From: TPA_inf: Saccharomyces
Taxonomy: Eukaryota
NCBI GenBank assembly: GCA_000146045.2
Contig: BK006948.2
Location: 864,001 to 928,000, forward strand
Length of the DNA: 64,000 nt
Direction: 5' to 3'
Part shown: positions 20,514 through 30,092 of the stretch, in pieces
How the letters are laid out: each line of letters begins with the position of its first letter
How positions within the stretch are numbered: the stretch's first letter is position 1
The notes under the pieces: generated by a model
Databases searched by the model: none
What the model was told of the DNA's origin: nothing
The model's input: only the letters and a program-made list of their open reading frames with translations
Made by a program: the position numbers and the translations under genes

Positions 20514-23500
20514 ATGACGACCCAGCAAGAGGAGCAACGAAGTGATACCAAGAATAGCAAAAGCGAGTCACCTTCAGAAGTTTTAGTCGATACTCTCGAC
20601 TCAAAGTCAAATGGCAGTAGTGATGATGATAATATCGGACAAAGTGAAGAGCTATCAGATAAAGAAATATATACAGTAGAAGATAGACCACCAGAATATT
20701 GGGCTCAAAGAAAGAAAAAATTCGTACTTGATGTAGATCCAAAATACGCCAAGCAAAAGGACAAGTCCGATACGTACAAAAGATTCAAATATTTATTAGG
20801 CGTCACAGACCTTTTCCGTCATTTTATTGGAATTAAGGCAAAACATGATAAAAATATTCAAAAACTCTTAAAACAGTTAGATTCTGATGCAAACAAACTT
20901 TCCAAATCACACAGCACCGTCAGTTCGTCATCACGTCACCATAGAAAAACAGAAAAGGAGGAAGATGCTGAATTAATGGCTGATGAGGAAGAAGAGATTG
21001 TAGATACATATCAGGAAGACATATTCGTCTCAGAATCTCCCTCCTTCGTCAAGTCAGGAAAATTAAGAGACTATCAAGTTCAAGGCTTAAACTGGTTAAT
21101 ATCGTTGCACGAAAACAAACTATCTGGTATCTTGGCCGATGAAATGGGGCTGGGTAAAACCTTACAAACAATTTCATTCCTAGGTTATTTGAGATACGTC
21201 AAACAAATCGAGGGACCCTTTCTAATAATAGTACCGAAGTCAACACTAGATAATTGGAGACGAGAGTTTCTTAAATGGACTCCAAACGTCAATGTCCTTG
21301 TGTTACATGGTGATAAAGACACAAGAGCTGATATAGTACGGAATATAATATTAGAAGCTAGATTTGATGTATTGATTACATCTTATGAAATGGTCATTAG
21401 AGAAAAGAATGCTTTGAAAAGATTAGCTTGGCAATATATTGTTATTGATGAGGCTCACAGGATCAAAAATGAACAAAGCGCGTTATCTCAAATAATTAGA
21501 TTATTTTACTCTAAGAATAGATTATTGATTACGGGCACGCCTCTACAAAACAATCTACACGAATTATGGGCCCTGCTAAATTTCTTATTACCTGATATAT
21601 TTGGAGATTCTGAACTTTTTGATGAATGGTTCGAACAAAACAATTCGGAACAAGATCAAGAAATTGTAATCCAACAGCTACACTCAGTACTAAACCCCTT
21701 TTTACTGAGAAGAGTCAAAGCGGATGTCGAAAAATCTTTGCTACCTAAAATCGAAACGAATGTTTACGTGGGGATGACAGACATGCAAATACAATGGTAT
21801 AAATCATTATTAGAGAAGGATATAGACGCTGTTAACGGTGCTGTTGGAAAAAGAGAAGGCAAAACGAGGTTACTGAATATTGTTATGCAATTAAGGAAAT
21901 GCTGTAATCATCCATATCTTTTTGAAGGCGCAGAACCTGGACCTCCATACACTACCGATGAACATTTGATTTTCAATTCCGGGAAAATGATTATATTAGA
22001 TAAGTTACTGAAAAGACTGAAGGAAAAGGGATCTAGAGTATTGATTTTCAGTCAAATGTCGAGACTATTGGATATCTTAGAAGATTATTGCTATTTTAGA
22101 GATTTTGAATATTGCAGAATCGACGGTTCTACTAGCCATGAAGAACGTATAGAAGCTATCGATGAGTATAATAAACCTAATTCTGAAAAGTTCGTTTTTT
22201 TGCTAACAACACGTGCCGGTGGTTTAGGTATTAACCTTGTCACAGCCGACACTGTTATTCTTTTTGATTCTGATTGGAACCCTCAAGCTGATCTACAAGC
22301 AATGGATAGAGCGCATAGAATTGGTCAAAAGAAACAAGTTCATGTTTATAGATTTGTCACAGAAAATGCTATTGAAGAGAAAGTCATTGAGCGTGCCGCA
22401 CAAAAGCTGAGACTAGACCAGTTGGTTATCCAACAGGGCACGGGCAAGAAAACTGCATCTCTTGGTAACTCAAAGGATGATCTGTTGGATATGATTCAAT
22501 TTGGCGCTAAAAATATGTTTGAAAAGAAAGCAAGTAAAGTCACTGTTGATGCTGATATCGATGATATTTTGAAAAAGGGGGAACAGAAGACACAAGAACT
22601 AAATGCCAAATACCAAAGTTTAGGACTTGACGACTTACAAAAGTTCAATGGGATCGAGAACCAATCTGCTTACGAATGGAATGGTAAAAGCTTTCAAAAA
22701 AAATCCAACGACAAAGTAGTTGAATGGATTAATCCTTCCCGAAGAGAAAGAAGAAGAGAGCAAACCACTTATTCAGTTGACGATTATTATAAGGAAATTA
22801 TTGGTGGTGGCTCTAAATCAGCAAGCAAGCAAACTCCGCAGCCAAAAGCACCCCGCGCTCCAAAGGTTATACACGGTCAAGATTTCCAGTTCTTCCCCAA
22901 GGAGTTGGATGCCTTACAAGAAAAGGAACAGCTTTACTTCAAGAAAAAGGTCAACTATAAGGTTACTTCTTATGATATTACGGGAGATATACGTAATGAA
23001 GGAAGCGATGCTGAAGAAGAAGAAGGAGAATACAAAAATGCCGCTAATACAGAAGGTCATAAAGGCCATGAGGAACTTAAAAGAAGGATTGAGGAGGAGC
23101 AAGAGAAGATTAATTCAGCACCGGATTTTACCCAAGAAGATGAATTACGAAAGCAAGAATTGATATCAAAAGCCTTTACTAACTGGAATAAGAGGGACTT
23201 TATGGCGTTTATCAACGCCTGCGCCAAATACGGTAGAGATGATATGGAAAACATTAAGAAATCTATTGATTCCAAAACACCAGAAGAGGTTGAAGTGTAT
23301 GCAAAAATATTCTGGGAAAGACTAAAGGAAATCAATGGGTGGGAGAAGTATTTACATAATGTAGAACTTGGTGAAAAAAAAAATGAAAAACTGAAATTCC
23401 AGGAAACTCTATTGAGGCAGAAAATCGAACAGTGTAAACATCCATTACATGAGCTGATAATACAGTATCCACCTAATAATGCTAGAAGAACTTACAATAC

Positions 23501-23876
23501 CTTAGAAGATAAATTTTTATTATTAGCTGTTAACAAGTACGGACTTCGTGCTGACAAGCTCTATGAAAAATTAAAGCAAGAAATCATGATGAGTGATTTG
23601 TTCACTTTTGATTGGTTTATAAAGACAAGAACGGTGCATGAGCTATCAAAAAGAGTCCATACGCTATTAACTTTAATTGTAAGAGAGTATGAGCAACCTG
23701 ACGCAAATAAGAAGAAAAGGAGTAGAACTTCAGCGACTAGAGAGGATACTCCTTTATCCCAAAATGAAAGCACTAGAGCTTCAACGGTTCCAAATCTCCC
23801 GACGACGATGGTGACAAATCAAAAAGATACAAACGATCATGTTGATAAAAGAACCAAAATTGATCAAGAAGCATGA
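20514..23876 (+). CDS. ISW2: ISWI-family SNF2 chromatin-remodelling ATPase (helicase motifs + HAND-SANT-SLIDE), 1120 aa
   Basis: The ATG at 20514 gives [11 protein letters not shown]... of 1120 aa. Walker A (DEMGLGKT) and DEAH-box-like (IDEAHRIKN) motifs are present. SANT/SLIDE regions are in the C-terminal half. Confidence 0.95.
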
Positions 23877-24519
23877 ATCATGTATTGTGCATTAAAATAA
23901 GTGACGTGAGAGATATAATTTTTTATATTACTTTTTCATTGAATACAATTAAACTAACGAGCCTTATAGACCGCATTATATAATGAACCGTAGCCACTTC
24001 TTGACCACTATCTTCAAGTTTGATAATGATAAATGACAGGTAATCATATTTCAGTCACCTTTTTCCCTTCAATGAAATGTGATATCGCTGCAAAAATGGT
24101 GAATGAAGAGGACAAATTAAGTCTAACTGGGTCGAGCCGCTTTAACTAATTCATATCCATTCTAAGATAATTGAACTGCTGAAAACTAAAGCCTGCTTTG
24201 ATACTTGTCATATTGTATTTATCTACAAACTTACATTAACAACAGTGTACTGAATTATAAGAGAGCAATTGCCAAAAAAGTCATTTAGTTAAAACTTCTC
24301 CATTTCAAGTTTCCAAGGATAGGTGAAGTGCTATCCCAGAGACTCCAAAAACATGCGAATATATTATTAAGTTTCAGTTGATTAATATTTCTAAACCATA
24401 TAAAAAAGCACGTATTTGGCACGATCTGTAGTTAATTGCAACCTAGTTACGCGATAGCACGCGTTTTCTTTTTTATGAATAAAAGCATTAGAAGTTTCCA
24501 TGTTACTACTCACCTGCTC

Positions 24520-24750
24520 TCACCGACTCATTTTGTTAAGCTTGTCTTCAATTGCTTGTATACTGCGTGAAAACTCATCATCATTTTCCTTCATTTGCCT
24601 CTGAACATCCTTTAGTGATTTTTCTATTTCATTTGCCAGGTCAAACACGGTTACAATATTTTCTGTATCTCCCTTTATTGAGTTAGTCTCAGATGTATTG
24701 GCCAAGGGAGCCTGTGGTTCCTCCGAAGCTTCCAGTTTTTCAGTACTCAT
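24520..24750 (-). CDS. BIL1: Small 76-aa protein (Bud6-interacting ligand)
   Basis: 76-aa ORF with a genuine ATG. Its length and position between ISW2 and RRG7 match YOR304C-A. It is an intrinsically short ORF, so confidence is lower. Confidence 0.7.
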   Translation of the reverse strand: MSTEKLEASEEPQAPLANTSETNSIKGDTENIVTVFDLANEIEKSLKDVQRQMKENDDEFSRSIQAIEDKLNKMSR

Positions 24751-24848
24751 TACAGTGCTCCTTCAGAAGATGCAAGTCACATTTACAATATCATTTAGCG
24801 CTAAGGTAAAATGTACCTGTAAGCCAAGCCGCTTCATTGGTTTGCTAG

Positions 24849-24872
24849 TTTTTTTTTTTTTTTTTTTTTTTT
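24849..24872 (+). repeat. 24-nt homopolymeric poly(dT) tract in the BIL1-RRG7 divergent promoter
   Basis: Counted 24 consecutive T at 24849-24872. Poly(dA:dT) tracts act as nucleosome-excluding promoter elements. Confidence 0.9.
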
Positions 24873-25021
24873 CAAATTATTTATCGAGGCCAACTGAAAA
24901 GCAAAACAACATGGTTGATCGATACATAGAAATTAACGACCAGGAAGCGAAATACTGCAGCAAATTTCTAAAGCTTCTTCCTATATAAAACACGGTAAAG
25001 AACGGTAAAACATGATAAAAC

Positions 25022-25750
25022 ATGATAAAAAACTATTTGGGACGAAGATGGCTCAATAATCCTGCAATTCAAGCATATGTGAAACAAAATGCTGCTGTCG
25101 CCCATTCTACGGTGTTTCAAGGAAATCTTTATGAATATACGGTGATGAGGGAGTTATCTGAGAAACTACGAATGACAAAGTTGAGAAAAACCGGTGGCGC
25201 CCATGATGGTGGCGTAGACATAAAGGGAAGCTGGCCAGTAGATGATATTTATTGGAAAATTTCATCGTTAATGCCCAATTTGGAAATGGCTAGTAACATA
25301 AAAAGAACGAACTCGCAAAATGGCTTCGTATTGAAACCTTTAAAGTATAGGATAATCGACCATACTTTTGAACCATTGAAAGTACTAGTCCAATGTAAGG
25401 CTTTCACTAAATCAAAATTATCTCCTAGAGAATTCCGTGAGTTAGTAGGAACATTCACCTCACTAGTATCACATAGTCAACGCAACAAAACAGTATGCAT
25501 TATGTGTTCCCCTCATATGTTAACAAAAGATACCTTAAATCTTATCAATAACATCACGCTTCCTCTGATATATTTACGTGTTGAGATGCTGAAAGAGAAG
25601 ACTGACGGGCACTTTGACTTAATCAATTCAGGAAAACTAATTAATTATTACGAGAATTCATACGCCTCTACGTTAATGCAAGATTGCAAGATTTCTGAAT
25701 GGCTGAAGTTGAAGTTGTACAAAAATAGTGACTTTAATTCGGAAAAATAA
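25022..25750 (+). CDS. RRG7: Mitochondrial protein required for respiratory growth; carries a restriction-endonuclease-like (Mrr_cat/PD-(D/E)xK) signature, 242 aa
   Basis: 242-aa ORF. The [12 protein letters not shown] motif (25196-25231) and IIDH...VLVQCK (QCK at 25391-25399) are visible. Confidence 0.88.
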
Positions 25751-25866
25751 AAAAAAAAAAAAAAACATAAGGAAATTTTAATTAAATAGTCTATCTACAC
25801 ATTTCCTAAAAGAAAATATTATTGCATTACTTTTTTGAAGATCTATAAAGGGCACTGTCTTACTTT

Positions 25867-27432
25867 TTAAAATCTGACCCACTTGAAGCCAACACAGTAT
25901 GCTCTCGAAATTATGTAGCAAACAGCGCTTACAAAAGTTGCCAAACCGCAAAAAATAATATAGTGTTGGTAATCGGCCGTTGTCTTGATAGAGATAATGG
26001 CACCTGTTATCGGAATGCCGACTAAAGTACCGAAACCGACAACGAAGTACATTGTAGAGTAACGTTTACCGAACTCTTCCGTTTTAGATATCTGGCCACA
26101 GCAAACAGGAAGTAAGGAGAAAACGCTTCCAGAACAAAATCCATATAGGGCACTAATAACGTACATATTTGTCAAATTGGTACCAAATGGTAACCAACCA
26201 ACAAACATGACGATAAATAGAGTGAGTAGAGTTGCAATTGCGACGTTAAACCTACCGAACTTATCGCTCAAATAGCCAGGAACCCATCTCCCGGGTATGC
26301 CGCAGACATTTATAATCATAATCAAGGTGTAGGCGTCATTAGCAGAAATTCCATGGCTGGTGGCGTATGATCCATAATAAGTAAGAGCTGAATTAATGGA
26401 TAACTCACTAAATACCGTTCCCAGGACACAAAAAAGATATTTCATATCCAGGAAAGCCTTCGCATCAAAACATTGCAGAATATAAACTCTGAGTATGTAT
26501 CTCCAACGTGACTCACCATCTTTGGAATTTTCGATAACATGTGGTAACCTCTCTTTGACTAAAATGATTGACAGAGTTAGCAAAGCCAAATCTAAAAATC
26601 CTAAAGTTCTAATGCCCCAAACAAATCCATAAGTTGGATCAGTGTCTGACTTCATAGAGAAGAAACTACGCAACATAATTGGGAAAACGACGCCACCCAC
26701 ACTACCACCAATAGTGGCCATTGCCAATGCAGTACCACGTCTCTTAAAAAAATAGTGGGCGGGAACACTTACTAGGGGACTCAGTACAATACCATTACCG
26801 AACCCGCAGACAATGGCAAAGGACAGTATGAAGTGCCAATATTTAGTAGAGTTGGCGGTAGCGAACAGACCGGCTACATGAAAAACCGTGCCCACAATCA
26901 TAATTGTCCTAAATCCATTTCTATCAAAGTAAGTACCACTAATGATACATGAGGCAGAGCAAACAAAAAGAAACAAAGAAAACAGCCAACCAATGGTAGA
27001 AACACTTTCACTGGATAATTGATTGTCCTGTAGATGACTTTCTATGACCCCCGTTGAGTTTAATAAACCAAAGCATGCAATTAGACCCAAGAAGCAACCA
27101 AATGTCACAACCCAAGCCTTGAATCCACCCTCCGGGAAGCTTTCAATTTCTTCATTGGAATCTTCTTCTTTGTCACTGTCGTGCGTGCTCGAGGTATTTT
27201 CACCCCAATGTGGTTGGCTTTCAATGTCAGTTCCTTTATTTACTTCCTTCTTGGTATACACCTTTGCCGACACCGACGTTGACGCGTAAGAGGCAGTAGT
27301 CTCTAATGACTCTAAATCATCAGCTTCTGGATCATAATGTATGCTATCCTCATCTAAATCAGGTTGCCGCAGTTGGTTGGTTTGTTCTTCTGGAACTATA
27401 GTGTCTTTAGGCGTTAAACTGTCTGAGCTCAT
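25867..27432 (-). CDS. MCH5: Major-facilitator-superfamily transporter (plasma-membrane riboflavin transporter), 521 aa
   Basis: 521-aa ORF with an acidic N-terminal extension followed by about 12 TM helices. Exact MCH5 length. Confidence 0.92.
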   Translation of the reverse strand: MSSDSLTPKDTIVPEEQTNQLRQPDLDEDSIHYDPEADDLESLETTASYASTSVSAKVYTKKEVNKGTDIESQPHWGENTSSTHDSDKEEDSNEEIESFPEGGFKAWVVTFGCFLGLIACFGLLNSTGVIESHLQDNQLSSESVSTIGWLFSLFLFVCSASCIISGTYFDRNGFRTIMIVGTVFHVAGLFATANSTKYWHFILSFAIVCGFGNGIVLSPLVSVPAHYFFKRRGTALAMATIGGSVGGVVFPIMLRSFFSMKSDTDPTYGFVWGIRTLGFLDLALLTLSIILVKERLPHVIENSKDGESRWRYILRVYILQCFDAKAFLDMKYLFCVLGTVFSELSINSALTYYGSYATSHGISANDAYTLIMIINVCGIPGRWVPGYLSDKFGRFNVAIATLLTLFIVMFVGWLPFGTNLTNMYVISALYGFCSGSVFSLLPVCCGQISKTEEFGKRYSTMYFVVGFGTLVGIPITGAIISIKTTADYQHYIIFCGLATFVSAVCYIISRAYCVGFKWVRF

Positions 27433-28730
27433 TATTTTTCTTTTTAATCTATAGTAAAATCAGAGCTTTTTAATCGATAGTATGCCCCCGTGATCTTAGT
27501 TATTCAGATCTTAGTATGTTTTTACAGATATAACCTATCCTTCACTAACTTTGAAGAGAGAATTGCTATTTGAGAATTTCCAAACGTACATCAAGCAGTT
27601 TATATATCTAGTCCCCGTAACTACTGGGAGATCTAACCAAATAGCTTCTTTATTATATTCATTTCTCTGAGCAAAATAGATATTTTTGAAAAATTTTCCT
27701 CTAGTTTCTTTTCAGAGATGTCTCTCTATTATTAGCCTCATACAATACCGCCTAGGGCGATTCAGCAGAACAGTAATTATTCCGCTGTATTTCTTTTTCA
27801 GGTGCCTCAAACGTCTATAGAACAGCGCGCAGCAGGTTGAGAAAAATGTCAAAAATTCGATCCTTTCCTATCTTTTCTTTTTCGGACGCCAAAGCGCAGT
27901 ATTCAACCGACGATGTTCGGGAAGCCACCCCCGAGATCATAATAACAGGTGCGTTGTGACTCTATTGTTAACACGAGGGAAAAGATGGAATAATTTTGGA
28001 GAAACACAATGTCGTTCTAGCGGGAAAAAAGGGCAAAACCAAAAAACACGGAGTCTGTCCAATATTAATTTGGTTAAAGCAGTTCGTATAACCAAACTTT
28101 ATTGGCATTGTCCGTCGACTAGTCTATTTTTATTTCTCTCAACCTTTCGAGTACTTGGAAAAAGGAGTAGATCCGCTTTCAGCAATCGAAGCAATAGGCA
28201 TTAGGGGTAGAGCAATCCTCAAAATCCTTGTGCCTCGACTGTGGGTTCTAGTATGATCGCTATTTTTTCTTATTCTTTCCTAGTTAAAGCAATAGTTGTT
28301 CGTTCTATAAGTTTTTCCGCGAGATCGTGGAAATACCTTAAAAAAGACGCGTGTATGGCTCCTGCATGCGAATCTTCTCTTTTGCTTTGTAATCGCATGT
28401 GAGATAATCAAGGGATTGTAGCCATTGTTTTCGAAAAATAATAAAATGACCGCACTTTATCCTCCACGGAGCGGAAGGCCATTCCCGTACGCATATTAAT
28501 GTAAATGAGATAAATAACCAAATAAGTACCGCCACATCGGATTTTTAACCTTGATATGGTGCGGGGGTGGGGTAACAGTTTAGGATCTTGAAGTAATGCT
28601 AGCAACAGAGGTAGTAGCAGTAAATAAGATAAAAAAGACCTTCGAGGGTTTTTTTTTTGATTATATATTTGATATAGTACTAAGTGTCCTACCTTGAATG
28701 ATGGTTTGTACTCAATAGTATTACTTCATA

Positions 28731-30092
28731 TTATGCCTGACGTCCATCTTTTTTGGAAAGCCCCCATTTGTCATAACCGTACAATCCGGCAATTGTCAAG
28801 ATAACACCAAACACCTGAAAAAAATTTAACTTTGTTTCCCAAAAGAGTGCCACGGATATAACAACAATCCTCTTCATGATGTTTGCTACCGAATAATTAA
28901 TGGAAGATAGTAAACCGATCAACTGGAAAGCAAGCATTGCTTGGAAAAAATGGGCTATTCCATGAATCGCTACAAGGGCTACTGTTTCTAGCGTTAAATC
29001 GTTGATAACGCTACCGCCATGCATTAATTCGCCGGTTAAAAAAGGTAATAGGGTTAAAGAAAACCCAATGCAGGAGCAGTAGAACAATATGGTAATCTTA
29101 TCCACTTGCAATGGAGAAAATCTTGTTTTGTCTAGACTCGGTTGCCCTTCCTTCGACGTGACGTCATCCGTAGAAGAAGACGGCAGTATTCCTACCTTCC
29201 TTCTGATGGTTAAAATATTCTTTGCAAAAATATTCTGTGCTACAAATATTATCATGGAAATAAAGGCAAAAAGCAACCCGATTAATGAAGATCCGCTTTT
29301 GTTATCTGAAGCCCTCTTACTGCCATGTGTTGACCAGCAAGTAGTCATAACGCCAAAAATTAAAAGTAACAAGGTATAATAAGTCATGGAATTGTAATAA
29401 CGATGTTCGAAAAATTTATAGTAGCCAACTGTTATTATTGGGGATAATGCCTTCACGGAATGCACTAGTGATACTGGTATCATAGATACCGCCTTGTGCG
29501 ATGTGATATGACCAATAAATTGGAATATTCCCATAGGGAAAGTGGTCATCAAAACCAGCTTTGAGGGAACTAAAAACTTGTGCAGGATAGAACTCCTGAA
29601 ATTGCCATCGAGATATTCAGGAAGGATACCGTCAGGGAAACTATTGAGTGCCTTTGAAAACTTCGTATGCTTCAAACGAGGTAGTCGGAATAAATTTACG
29701 ATGGAAGCAAATCCAACACATAGAACAGCACTAACAAGAAATTGCAATTCTGTGAGAGCTATGGGATGGTTGAAAGTTCTTAAAATGGCTTTAGATAGGT
29801 TACTTGAAATAGATGACGTGACGTACCATATAGAACAAATAATGGTTATTCTTAGGTCAACTTCAGGTAAGTACCCTTGTATATTACTAGGAAATAGTTG
29901 CGTGAATCTTTTTTTAAGGCTAGTAATATCATATCCAAAGACTTGATTACTGAATGTCTCCTTACTGTATTCTTTTTTTTGGTGTTGGAACCCCCCACGT
30001 GGTGGTTCTGGTATTTGATACAGTGATGGATCAAAGAGGTTTTTATGAACAGAATTACGTCGTTTGATCGCTGTACTTTGCGTTTGAATCAT
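28731..30092 (-). CDS. SLY41: Triose-phosphate/phosphate translocator-family membrane protein, 453 aa
   Basis: The track ORF extends to 30158. The internal ATG gives MIQTQSTAIKRRNSVHKNLFDP... of 453 aa, the SLY41 length. It is a multi-TM protein. Confidence 0.9.
   Translation of the reverse strand: MIQTQSTAIKRRNSVHKNLFDPSLYQIPEPPRGGFQHQKKEYSKETFSNQVFGYDITSLKKRFTQLFPSNIQGYLPEVDLRITIICSIWYVTSSISSNLSKAILRTFNHPIALTELQFLVSAVLCVGFASIVNLFRLPRLKHTKFSKALNSFPDGILPEYLDGNFRSSILHKFLVPSKLVLMTTFPMGIFQFIGHITSHKAVSMIPVSLVHSVKALSPIITVGYYKFFEHRYYNSMTYYTLLLLIFGVMTTCWSTHGSKRASDNKSGSSLIGLLFAFISMIIFVAQNIFAKNILTIRRKVGILPSSSTDDVTSKEGQPSLDKTRFSPLQVDKITILFYCSCIGFSLTLLPFLTGELMHGGSVINDLTLETVALVAIHGIAHFFQAMLAFQLIGLLSSINYSVANIMKRIVVISVALFWETKLNFFQVFGVILTIAGLYGYDKWGLSKKDGRQA

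Follow-up and report, generated by a model that had tools for sequence, protein, structure and literature searches.

Yeast Rrg7 carries a conserved Mrr-type nuclease active site and may act on mitochondrial DNA

The 64,000-nucleotide stretch of Saccharomyces cerevisiae DNA analysed here (contig BK006948.2, positions 864,001 to 928,000 of the forward strand; called the window below, positions being counted from its first letter) contains the respiratory-growth gene RRG7 (YOR305W). Its coding sequence, taken from the list of open reading frames (ORFs), occupies 25022..25750 on the forward strand and comprises 242 codons followed by a stop. The product is exactly the sequence of NP_014950.1 (Rrg7p, S. 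cerevisiae S288C), a small basic protein with an isoelectric point of 9.5, and it matches the Pfam family PF10356 (RRG7, formerly DUF2034) over residues 29-219 with an E-value of 1.1e-72, positions 1-185 of the 185 in the model being covered. This family was named after the yeast protein itself, and the full-length match makes Rrg7 a member of it. The original prediction, made from the letters of the window, was that Rrg7 carries an Mrr_cat, or PD-(D/E)xK, nuclease signature; Pfam matches in orthologues, profile alignment, a fold model and residue conservation all agree with it.

A family-profile search of 1.84 billion representative proteins returned 671 relatives at E<=0.001, and 153 of them, with at most 50% mutual identity and the named ones all fungal, served as representatives in the conservation alignment to which the counts below refer. 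The conserved residues of Rrg7 coincide exactly with motifs I, II and III of the Mrr family, as defined by Smith et al. (PMC2790908). Motif I is the pair Y37-E38 on helix alpha1 (25130..25135, on the forward strand like all features of the gene), recognized from conservation, the alignment with Mrr and the model; E38 is present in 149 representatives and the other four have a gap at this position. Conservation and alignment likewise define motif II, G58-G-A-H-D62-G-G64-V-D66 at the start of strand beta2 (25193..25219), which holds the supplementary and the catalytic aspartate and in which D62, G64 and D66 are each found in 153 of 153; with the residues up to G69 the full first block reads G58-G-A-H-D62-G-G64-V-D66-I-K-G69 and is encoded at nucleotides 25193-25228. 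Motif III, V121-L-V-Q124-C125-K126 on strand beta3 (25382..25399), was assigned in the same way. Each of Q124, C125 and K126 occurs in 152 representatives, and the triplet QCK in 315 of 318 family members. It is followed on helix alpha2 by R139-E140-L-V-G143 (25436..25450), a block identified by the conservation of R139 (150 representatives), E140 (147) and G143 (151). The C-terminal half of the domain (25490..25726), delimited from the model and from conservation, consists of beta4, a helix, beta5, a hairpin and terminal helices, with T168, P181 and N212 conserved. Altogether, G34, E38, L45, G58, D62, G64, D66, W71, Q124, C125, K126, R139, E140, G143, P181 and N212 are invariant or almost so, and the conserved active-site residues hold down to about 20% identity. 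When the whole window is translated in six frames, the pattern G[GA]xxDxGxD and the composite E...GGxxDxGxD...QxK...RExxG are each found once, and shuffling the residues of Rrg7 recreated GGxxDxGxD in 1 of 200,000 trials.

These blocks had been placed at 25196-25399, an interval whose end is exact and whose start is 3 nucleotides late, 25196 belonging to the codon of the second glycine and the true start being 25193. The residue numbers given for D66, D113, Q124 and K126 were correct; the spacer of the proposed RIIDH-x7-VLVQCK element, however, has six residues (TFEPLK) and not seven. Of the catalytic residues put forward at that time D66, Q124 and K126 are conserved, whereas D113 falls, together with RIIDH, within a lineage-specific insert between beta2 and beta3 (residues 72-118, 25235..25375). 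The columns of this insert are variable and rich in gaps, and in part of it the model is of lower confidence, with a predicted local distance difference test score (pLDDT) of 60-69 over residues 81-100. D113 itself is replaced by a gap in 102 representatives and varies even within the Saccharomycetaceae. The distance from the catalytic aspartate to the glutamine of motif III ranges from 13 to 93 residues across the 318 members, being 58 in yeast and 16 both in E. coli Mrr and in a 178-residue homologue from Rhizopus that has no insert at all. D113 was therefore dropped as a catalytic residue, and the corrected list for mutagenesis comprises E38, D62, D66, Q124, K126 and E140.

A departure from the conserved pattern was seen in the Yarrowia lipolytica homologue (P0286) and in a further sequence (P0168), which have Q-C-R for Q-C-K and F-L-E-L for I-R-E-L. 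With the catalytic lysine and the conserved arginine replaced, the activity of the Yarrowia lineage may have been altered or lost.

Profile comparisons suggested the branch of the superfamily to which Rrg7 belongs. The Mrr_cat model (PF04471) scored 17.9 bits on the yeast protein over residues 118-152, under the Pfam gathering cut-off of 21 bits, and PDB chains, searched with Rrg7 itself and with two profiles of the family, yielded only a ribosomal protein at E 1.2. Nothing relevant was found for Rrg7 in NCBIfam, and PADLOC gave no match for Rrg7 or for the Rhizopus homologue. Taken by themselves, the subthreshold score and the missing PDB match would suit a chance resemblance of motifs in an unrelated fold. 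On the other hand, Mrr_cat matched 31 of 32 Saccharomycetaceae orthologues at E<=0.1 (best E 1.3e-5), and distant fungal members exceeded its cut-off with 35.5, 31.6 and 25.6 bits. Alignment by hhalign of an 80-member family profile with E. coli Mrr gave a probability of 95% and an E-value of 3.8e-8, pairing Y37-E38 with F171-E172, the D62/G64/D66 triad with D199/G201/D203 and Q124/K126 with Q219/K221, and the Mrr_cat alignment ran on through S163...T168. The profile comparison proposed with the signature set motif onto motif, and chance resemblance is effectively refuted.

A profile built from divergent fungal members retrieved prokaryotic Mrr_cat proteins annotated as 'restriction system' (E 3e-9 to 1e-4), which share the blocks GGAGDRGIDL...VQCK...RE..G with the fungal family and match type IV restriction endonuclease models in PADLOC. 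Most matches of this profile carry a precomputed PF04471 entry, an annotation that makes no statement on the Pfam cut-off. Together, these comparisons support the assignment of Rrg7, at the level of sequence, to the Mrr_cat branch of the PD-(D/E)XK nucleases. The nearest prokaryotic relatives retrieved (P0320 and P0322, both metagenomic) have hydrophobic N-termini that by eye are probably membrane-spanning, and in both the Mrr_cat domain, with its Q-C-K and R-E/D..G blocks, comes after this N-terminal segment.

The AlphaFold2 model of yeast Rrg7 (mean pLDDT 82.1; predicted template modelling score 0.84) is composed of a helix at residues 30-49 that bears E38, strands at 52-56 and 67-71, the insert, a strand at 119-125, a helix at 135-148 and a strand at 157-163, followed by further elements. 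D66 directly precedes the strand 67-71, Q124 and K126 lie on or at the end of the strand 119-125, and R139, E140 and G143 are carried by the helix 135-148. In this predicted structure the core has the alpha-beta-beta-beta-alpha-beta order that is canonical for PD-(D/E)XK enzymes. Foldseek searches with the yeast model, the other check proposed with the signature, gave weak but consistent matches, the best being MspJI at E 3.6e-3. The model of the Rhizopus homologue was of higher confidence (pLDDT 92.5) and its structural scores were above those of yeast, namely 11.3 for XisH, 10.6 for AF1548, 10.5 for NucS, 10.1 for LlaBIII and 9.9 for AspBHI.

The catalytic domain starts after about 29 residues. 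Residues 1-37 contain no acidic residue and four lysines or arginines; the pLDDT is below 50 for residues 1-8 and 81-89 for residues 11-40, and both conservation and a confidently modelled helix begin at N13. Composition and low pLDDT point to residues 1-12 (25022..25057) as a probable short mitochondrial targeting segment, and the onset of conservation at N13 leaves room for no more than a short cleavable signal.

The fold assignment, although right, is a rediscovery of something known for about 20 years. By 2005 Yor305wp was counted among the PD-(D/E)XK proteins, and Steczkiewicz et al. in 2012 grouped DUF2034/PF10356 with Mrr_cat, adding that 'DUF2034 function is unknown' (PMC3424549). Several homologues are named in UniRef 'Restriction endonuclease type IV Mrr domain-containing protein'.

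Does the fold still harbor a working active site? Studies of LlaGI found D74 and D78, the counterparts of D62 and D66, critical for DNA cleavage together with K94 of motif III, with the glutamate and Q92 contributing (PMC2790908); in E. coli Mrr the catalytic mutant is D203A (PMC5435990). As an alternative, Rrg7 could have kept the nuclease fold without catalysis and act as a nucleic-acid binder or scaffold of the nucleoid or of another mitochondrial complex. Inactive Mrr-like domains do exist, such as the NACHT-associated inactive restriction endonuclease (PF22722), which is matched also by E. coli Mrr; moreover, motif III of Rrg7 has a glutamine in place of an acidic residue, Yarrowia has QCR, and no activity has been reported. 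However, active enzymes of the Mrr family normally have glutamine in motif III (PMC2790908), and the near-invariance of E38, D62, D66 and K126 fits catalysis better than binding alone, so we consider a purely non-catalytic role improbable. From a model of Mrr, E231 was proposed as a replacement carboxylate (PMC2790908). E140 of Rrg7 is one helical turn away from the position aligned to E231, and the RE..G block is present in the prokaryotic Mrr_cat matches as well; by this analogy E140 is a candidate additional or replacement carboxylate.

Comparison with E. coli Mrr, a type IV methyl-directed restriction enzyme, highlighted both what is shared and what is particular to Rrg7. In both proteins the three motifs come in one and the same order on matching structural elements: alpha1 carries (F/Y)E, D-x-G-x-D stands ahead of beta2 and beta3 bears Q-x-K. 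Relative to the bacterial domain, Rrg7 has the probable short targeting segment at its N-terminus and an extension at its C-terminus. The proteins also differ in that Rrg7 has 47 inserted residues separating motif II from motif III, an invariant cysteine in Q-C-K and the R-E pair on alpha2, for which Mrr has Q-A, and in that Rrg7 is a eukaryotic, nuclear-encoded mitochondrial protein outside any defence locus. Furthermore, Mrr possesses the winged-helix DNA-recognition domain Mrr_N (PF14338), which is missing from Rrg7: the Pfam model matched E. coli Mrr at 3e-20 and found nothing in Rrg7 or in nine longer members. Longer homologues of 350-514 residues did not show extra Pfam domains either. 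The lack of Mrr_N or another recognition domain argues that Rrg7 is not a methyl-directed restriction enzyme. In the type ISP enzymes LlaGI and LlaBIII (PDB 4xqk) the nuclease domain forms part of a fusion with helicase, methyltransferase and target-recognition domains, whereas Rrg7 consists of the domain alone. AF1548 (PDB 1y88), XisH (2okf) and other small stand-alone Mrr_cat or AHJR-like proteins are prokaryotic, share 6-9% identity and have poorly defined functions. NucS/EndoMS and the archaeal Holliday junction resolvases Hjc and Hje (PF01870) were compared as well. Hjc differs from Rrg7, with its Q-x-K, in having E-x-K and no supplementary aspartate; membership of the Hjc family was rejected, as Pfam Hjc did not match Rrg7 at E up to 10 and motif III is not E-x-K.

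The family is widespread in fungi. Named members came from Saccharomycotina, Pezizomycotina, Taphrinomycotina, Basidiomycota, Mucoromycota, Mortierellomycota and Glomeromycota, and the sole named eukaryotic match outside the fungi was from the choanoflagellate Monosiga brevicollis (P0319; E 3.3e-17), with the core motifs intact. The searches run here returned no animal homologues. The Monosiga gene model is surrounded by low-complexity LSLS repeats.

The genes flanking RRG7, an ISWI-type remodeller (ISW2-like), a 76-residue ORF and a transporter of the major facilitator superfamily, are unrelated, and no RNA families or tRNAs were found within 22000-29000 of the window. The in-frame ATG at 24911 was rejected as the start of an N-terminally extended Rrg7, a stop codon lying between this ATG and the gene. 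Within 25008-25059, a 10-nucleotide tandem duplication (AAAACATGAT x2) creates an out-of-frame ATG at 25012, 10 nucleotides upstream of the RRG7 start, which opens an upstream ORF of 15 codons overlapping the RRG7 initiation codon; if transcribed, this upstream ORF could reduce translation of RRG7. Farther upstream, the intergenic region contains a tract of 23 T (24851-24873). At the other end, an A-rich run (25748-25766) starts at the TAA stop codon of RRG7, and S. cerevisiae strain variants of 248-257 residues read through into the A tract (...SEKKKKKK...). In some S. cerevisiae assemblies the gene model is of 159 residues, starting at M84 (P0336; equal to 25271-25750) and devoid of motifs I and II; either an allele naturally disrupted at its N-terminus or an error of gene calling could explain it. 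An antisense ORF of 69 residues inside RRG7 (25249-25458, reverse strand) had no family match and was taken as spurious.

The published genetics of the deletion bears on what such a protein does in the organelle. RRG7 was named from a deletion screen, its product being mitochondrial and its deletion causing a highly penetrant pet phenotype (PMC2768984). Across the screens compiled in 2020 the pet score of rrg7 was 1.00, and the gene was still listed as of 'unknown function' (PMC7453639). The rrg7 deletion belongs to class II: mating to a mip1 rho0 strain rescued it, and so did cytoduction. A second, independent study again rescued it by cytoduction with rho+ mitochondrial DNA (mtDNA) after treatment with ethidium bromide. 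The supplementary table of 2009 names the class II strains that a rho0 donor rescues, and rrg7 is missing from them, which implies that the rescuing agent is fresh mtDNA, beyond the cytoplasm alone. These data indicate that Rrg7 is not strictly required for the expression of mtDNA or for respiration, and that without it the mtDNA of propagated strains turns non-functional or disappears. The cure by fresh mtDNA points to long-term mtDNA integrity over gene expression. The claim that Rrg7 is needed for mtDNA-dependent respiration thus stands insofar as the deletion is a pet mutant, but it was overstated, since the deletion strain respires after receiving fresh rho+ mtDNA.

Other reports complicate this picture. 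A screen with the DNA stain 4',6-diamidino-2-phenylindole (DAPI) placed the rrg7 deletion among the strains without mtDNA (PMC4149433), and coenzyme Q6 was raised about 7-fold in this deletion (PMC8435697). The disagreement between screens, which report either rho+ cells or mtDNA loss, and the 7-fold rise in coenzyme Q6 could both mean that the library deletion fails to respire for indirect or acquired reasons, through secondary damage or strain history, and that this phenotype reveals little of the real function. This explanation seems to us quite improbable, as it agrees poorly with the uniform pet score across the compiled screens, with a rescue that requires rho+ mtDNA and for which cytoplasm is insufficient, and with a protein that is mitochondrial and conserved throughout the fungi.

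Another alternative is that Rrg7 is an active nuclease on mitochondrial RNA and that mtDNA is lost secondarily to failed expression, a candidate role being the proposed 3'-end (dodecamer / 3'-RPE) processing endonuclease of yeast mitochondrial transcripts. In support of this idea, the active site of Rrg7 is intact, a 2025 study argues for endonucleolytic cleavage once Rmd9 has bound and leaves the enzyme unnamed (PMC11789488), and Pet127 of yeast mitochondria is a PD-(D/E)XK enzyme acting as a 5'-3' exoribonuclease (PMC9014873). Pet127 is, like Rrg7, nuclear-encoded; it belongs to another branch of the superfamily, is much larger and has RNA as substrate, and no sequence relationship between the two was detected here. 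Pet127 occurs in several eukaryotic lineages and is absent from animals and plants, and its nuclease nature was a prediction from distant homology, which sets a precedent for biochemical follow-up (PMC9014873). Nevertheless, fresh rho+ mtDNA restored respiration of the rrg7 deletion in two studies, something that an essential RNA-processing enzyme should not permit, and the close structural or sequence relatives (Mrr, LlaBIII, AF1548, AspBHI, MspJI, NucS and FokI) all act on DNA. The Rrg7 family also covers all major fungal phyla and a choanoflagellate, whereas the dodecamer/Rmd9 system is, to our knowledge, restricted to budding yeasts. The rescue by cytoduction led us to down-weight Rrg7 as the missing mitochondrial 3'-end endonuclease, and an RNA nuclease in general appears improbable.

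With the identity of the gene, its fold, its family and the conservation of its catalytic motifs established here, we favour the reading that Rrg7 is a stand-alone, metal-dependent Mrr-type DNA endonuclease that acts on mtDNA and serves its long-term integrity, which we regard as reasonably probable as a whole. Its parts are not equally firm: catalytic activity is likely, DNA is favoured over RNA as the substrate by a slight preference, and a role in mtDNA maintenance is tentative, the doubts here somewhat outweighing the support. In this proposal Rrg7, probably a dimer as are other enzymes of the PD-(D/E)XK fold, would hydrolyse phosphodiester bonds of DNA with a divalent metal, cutting mtDNA either non-sequence-specifically or according to structure or damage. 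In its absence mtDNA would slowly become non-functional or be lost, and newly introduced mtDNA would support respiration for some generations.

Several observations weigh against this proposal. The subthreshold Mrr_cat score of the yeast protein, the PDB searches and the weak Foldseek matches have been mentioned, and the searchable literature contains no biochemical assay of Rrg7 or of any homologue, so that the activity is unreported, as had been said in the original prediction. The Yarrowia homologue, with QCR and no RE pair, suggests that nuclease activity is perhaps not universal in the family. As Rrg7 has no DNA-recognition domain, its substrate is not readable from the sequence, and PD-(D/E)XK enzymes can act on RNA, as Pet127 does in the same organelle (PMC9014873). 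With regard to the genetics, rescue by mating to the mip1 rho0 strain implies that some functional mtDNA persists in the deletion, in conflict with the mtDNA loss seen in the DAPI screen, and the authors of the rescue study call the rrg7 phenotype 'acquired, independent of genotype'.

Few highly penetrant respiratory-growth genes of yeast were still of 'unknown function' in 2020, RRG7 being one of them, and the interest of this work lies in the biochemical function of such a conserved gene with a complete nuclease active site. Read anew, the genetics directs attention, through the cure by fresh mtDNA, to mtDNA integrity and away from gene expression. A more specific and rather doubtful possibility is that Rrg7 is an active mtDNA maintenance or quality-control enzyme free of any recognition domain, for example one that processes branched or damaged molecules or purges defective genomes. 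If true, this would explain why aged mtDNA is dead in the deletion, why it is revived when RRG7 is supplied through mating and why fresh mtDNA works temporarily, and the conservation of such an enzyme would span fungi and choanoflagellates.
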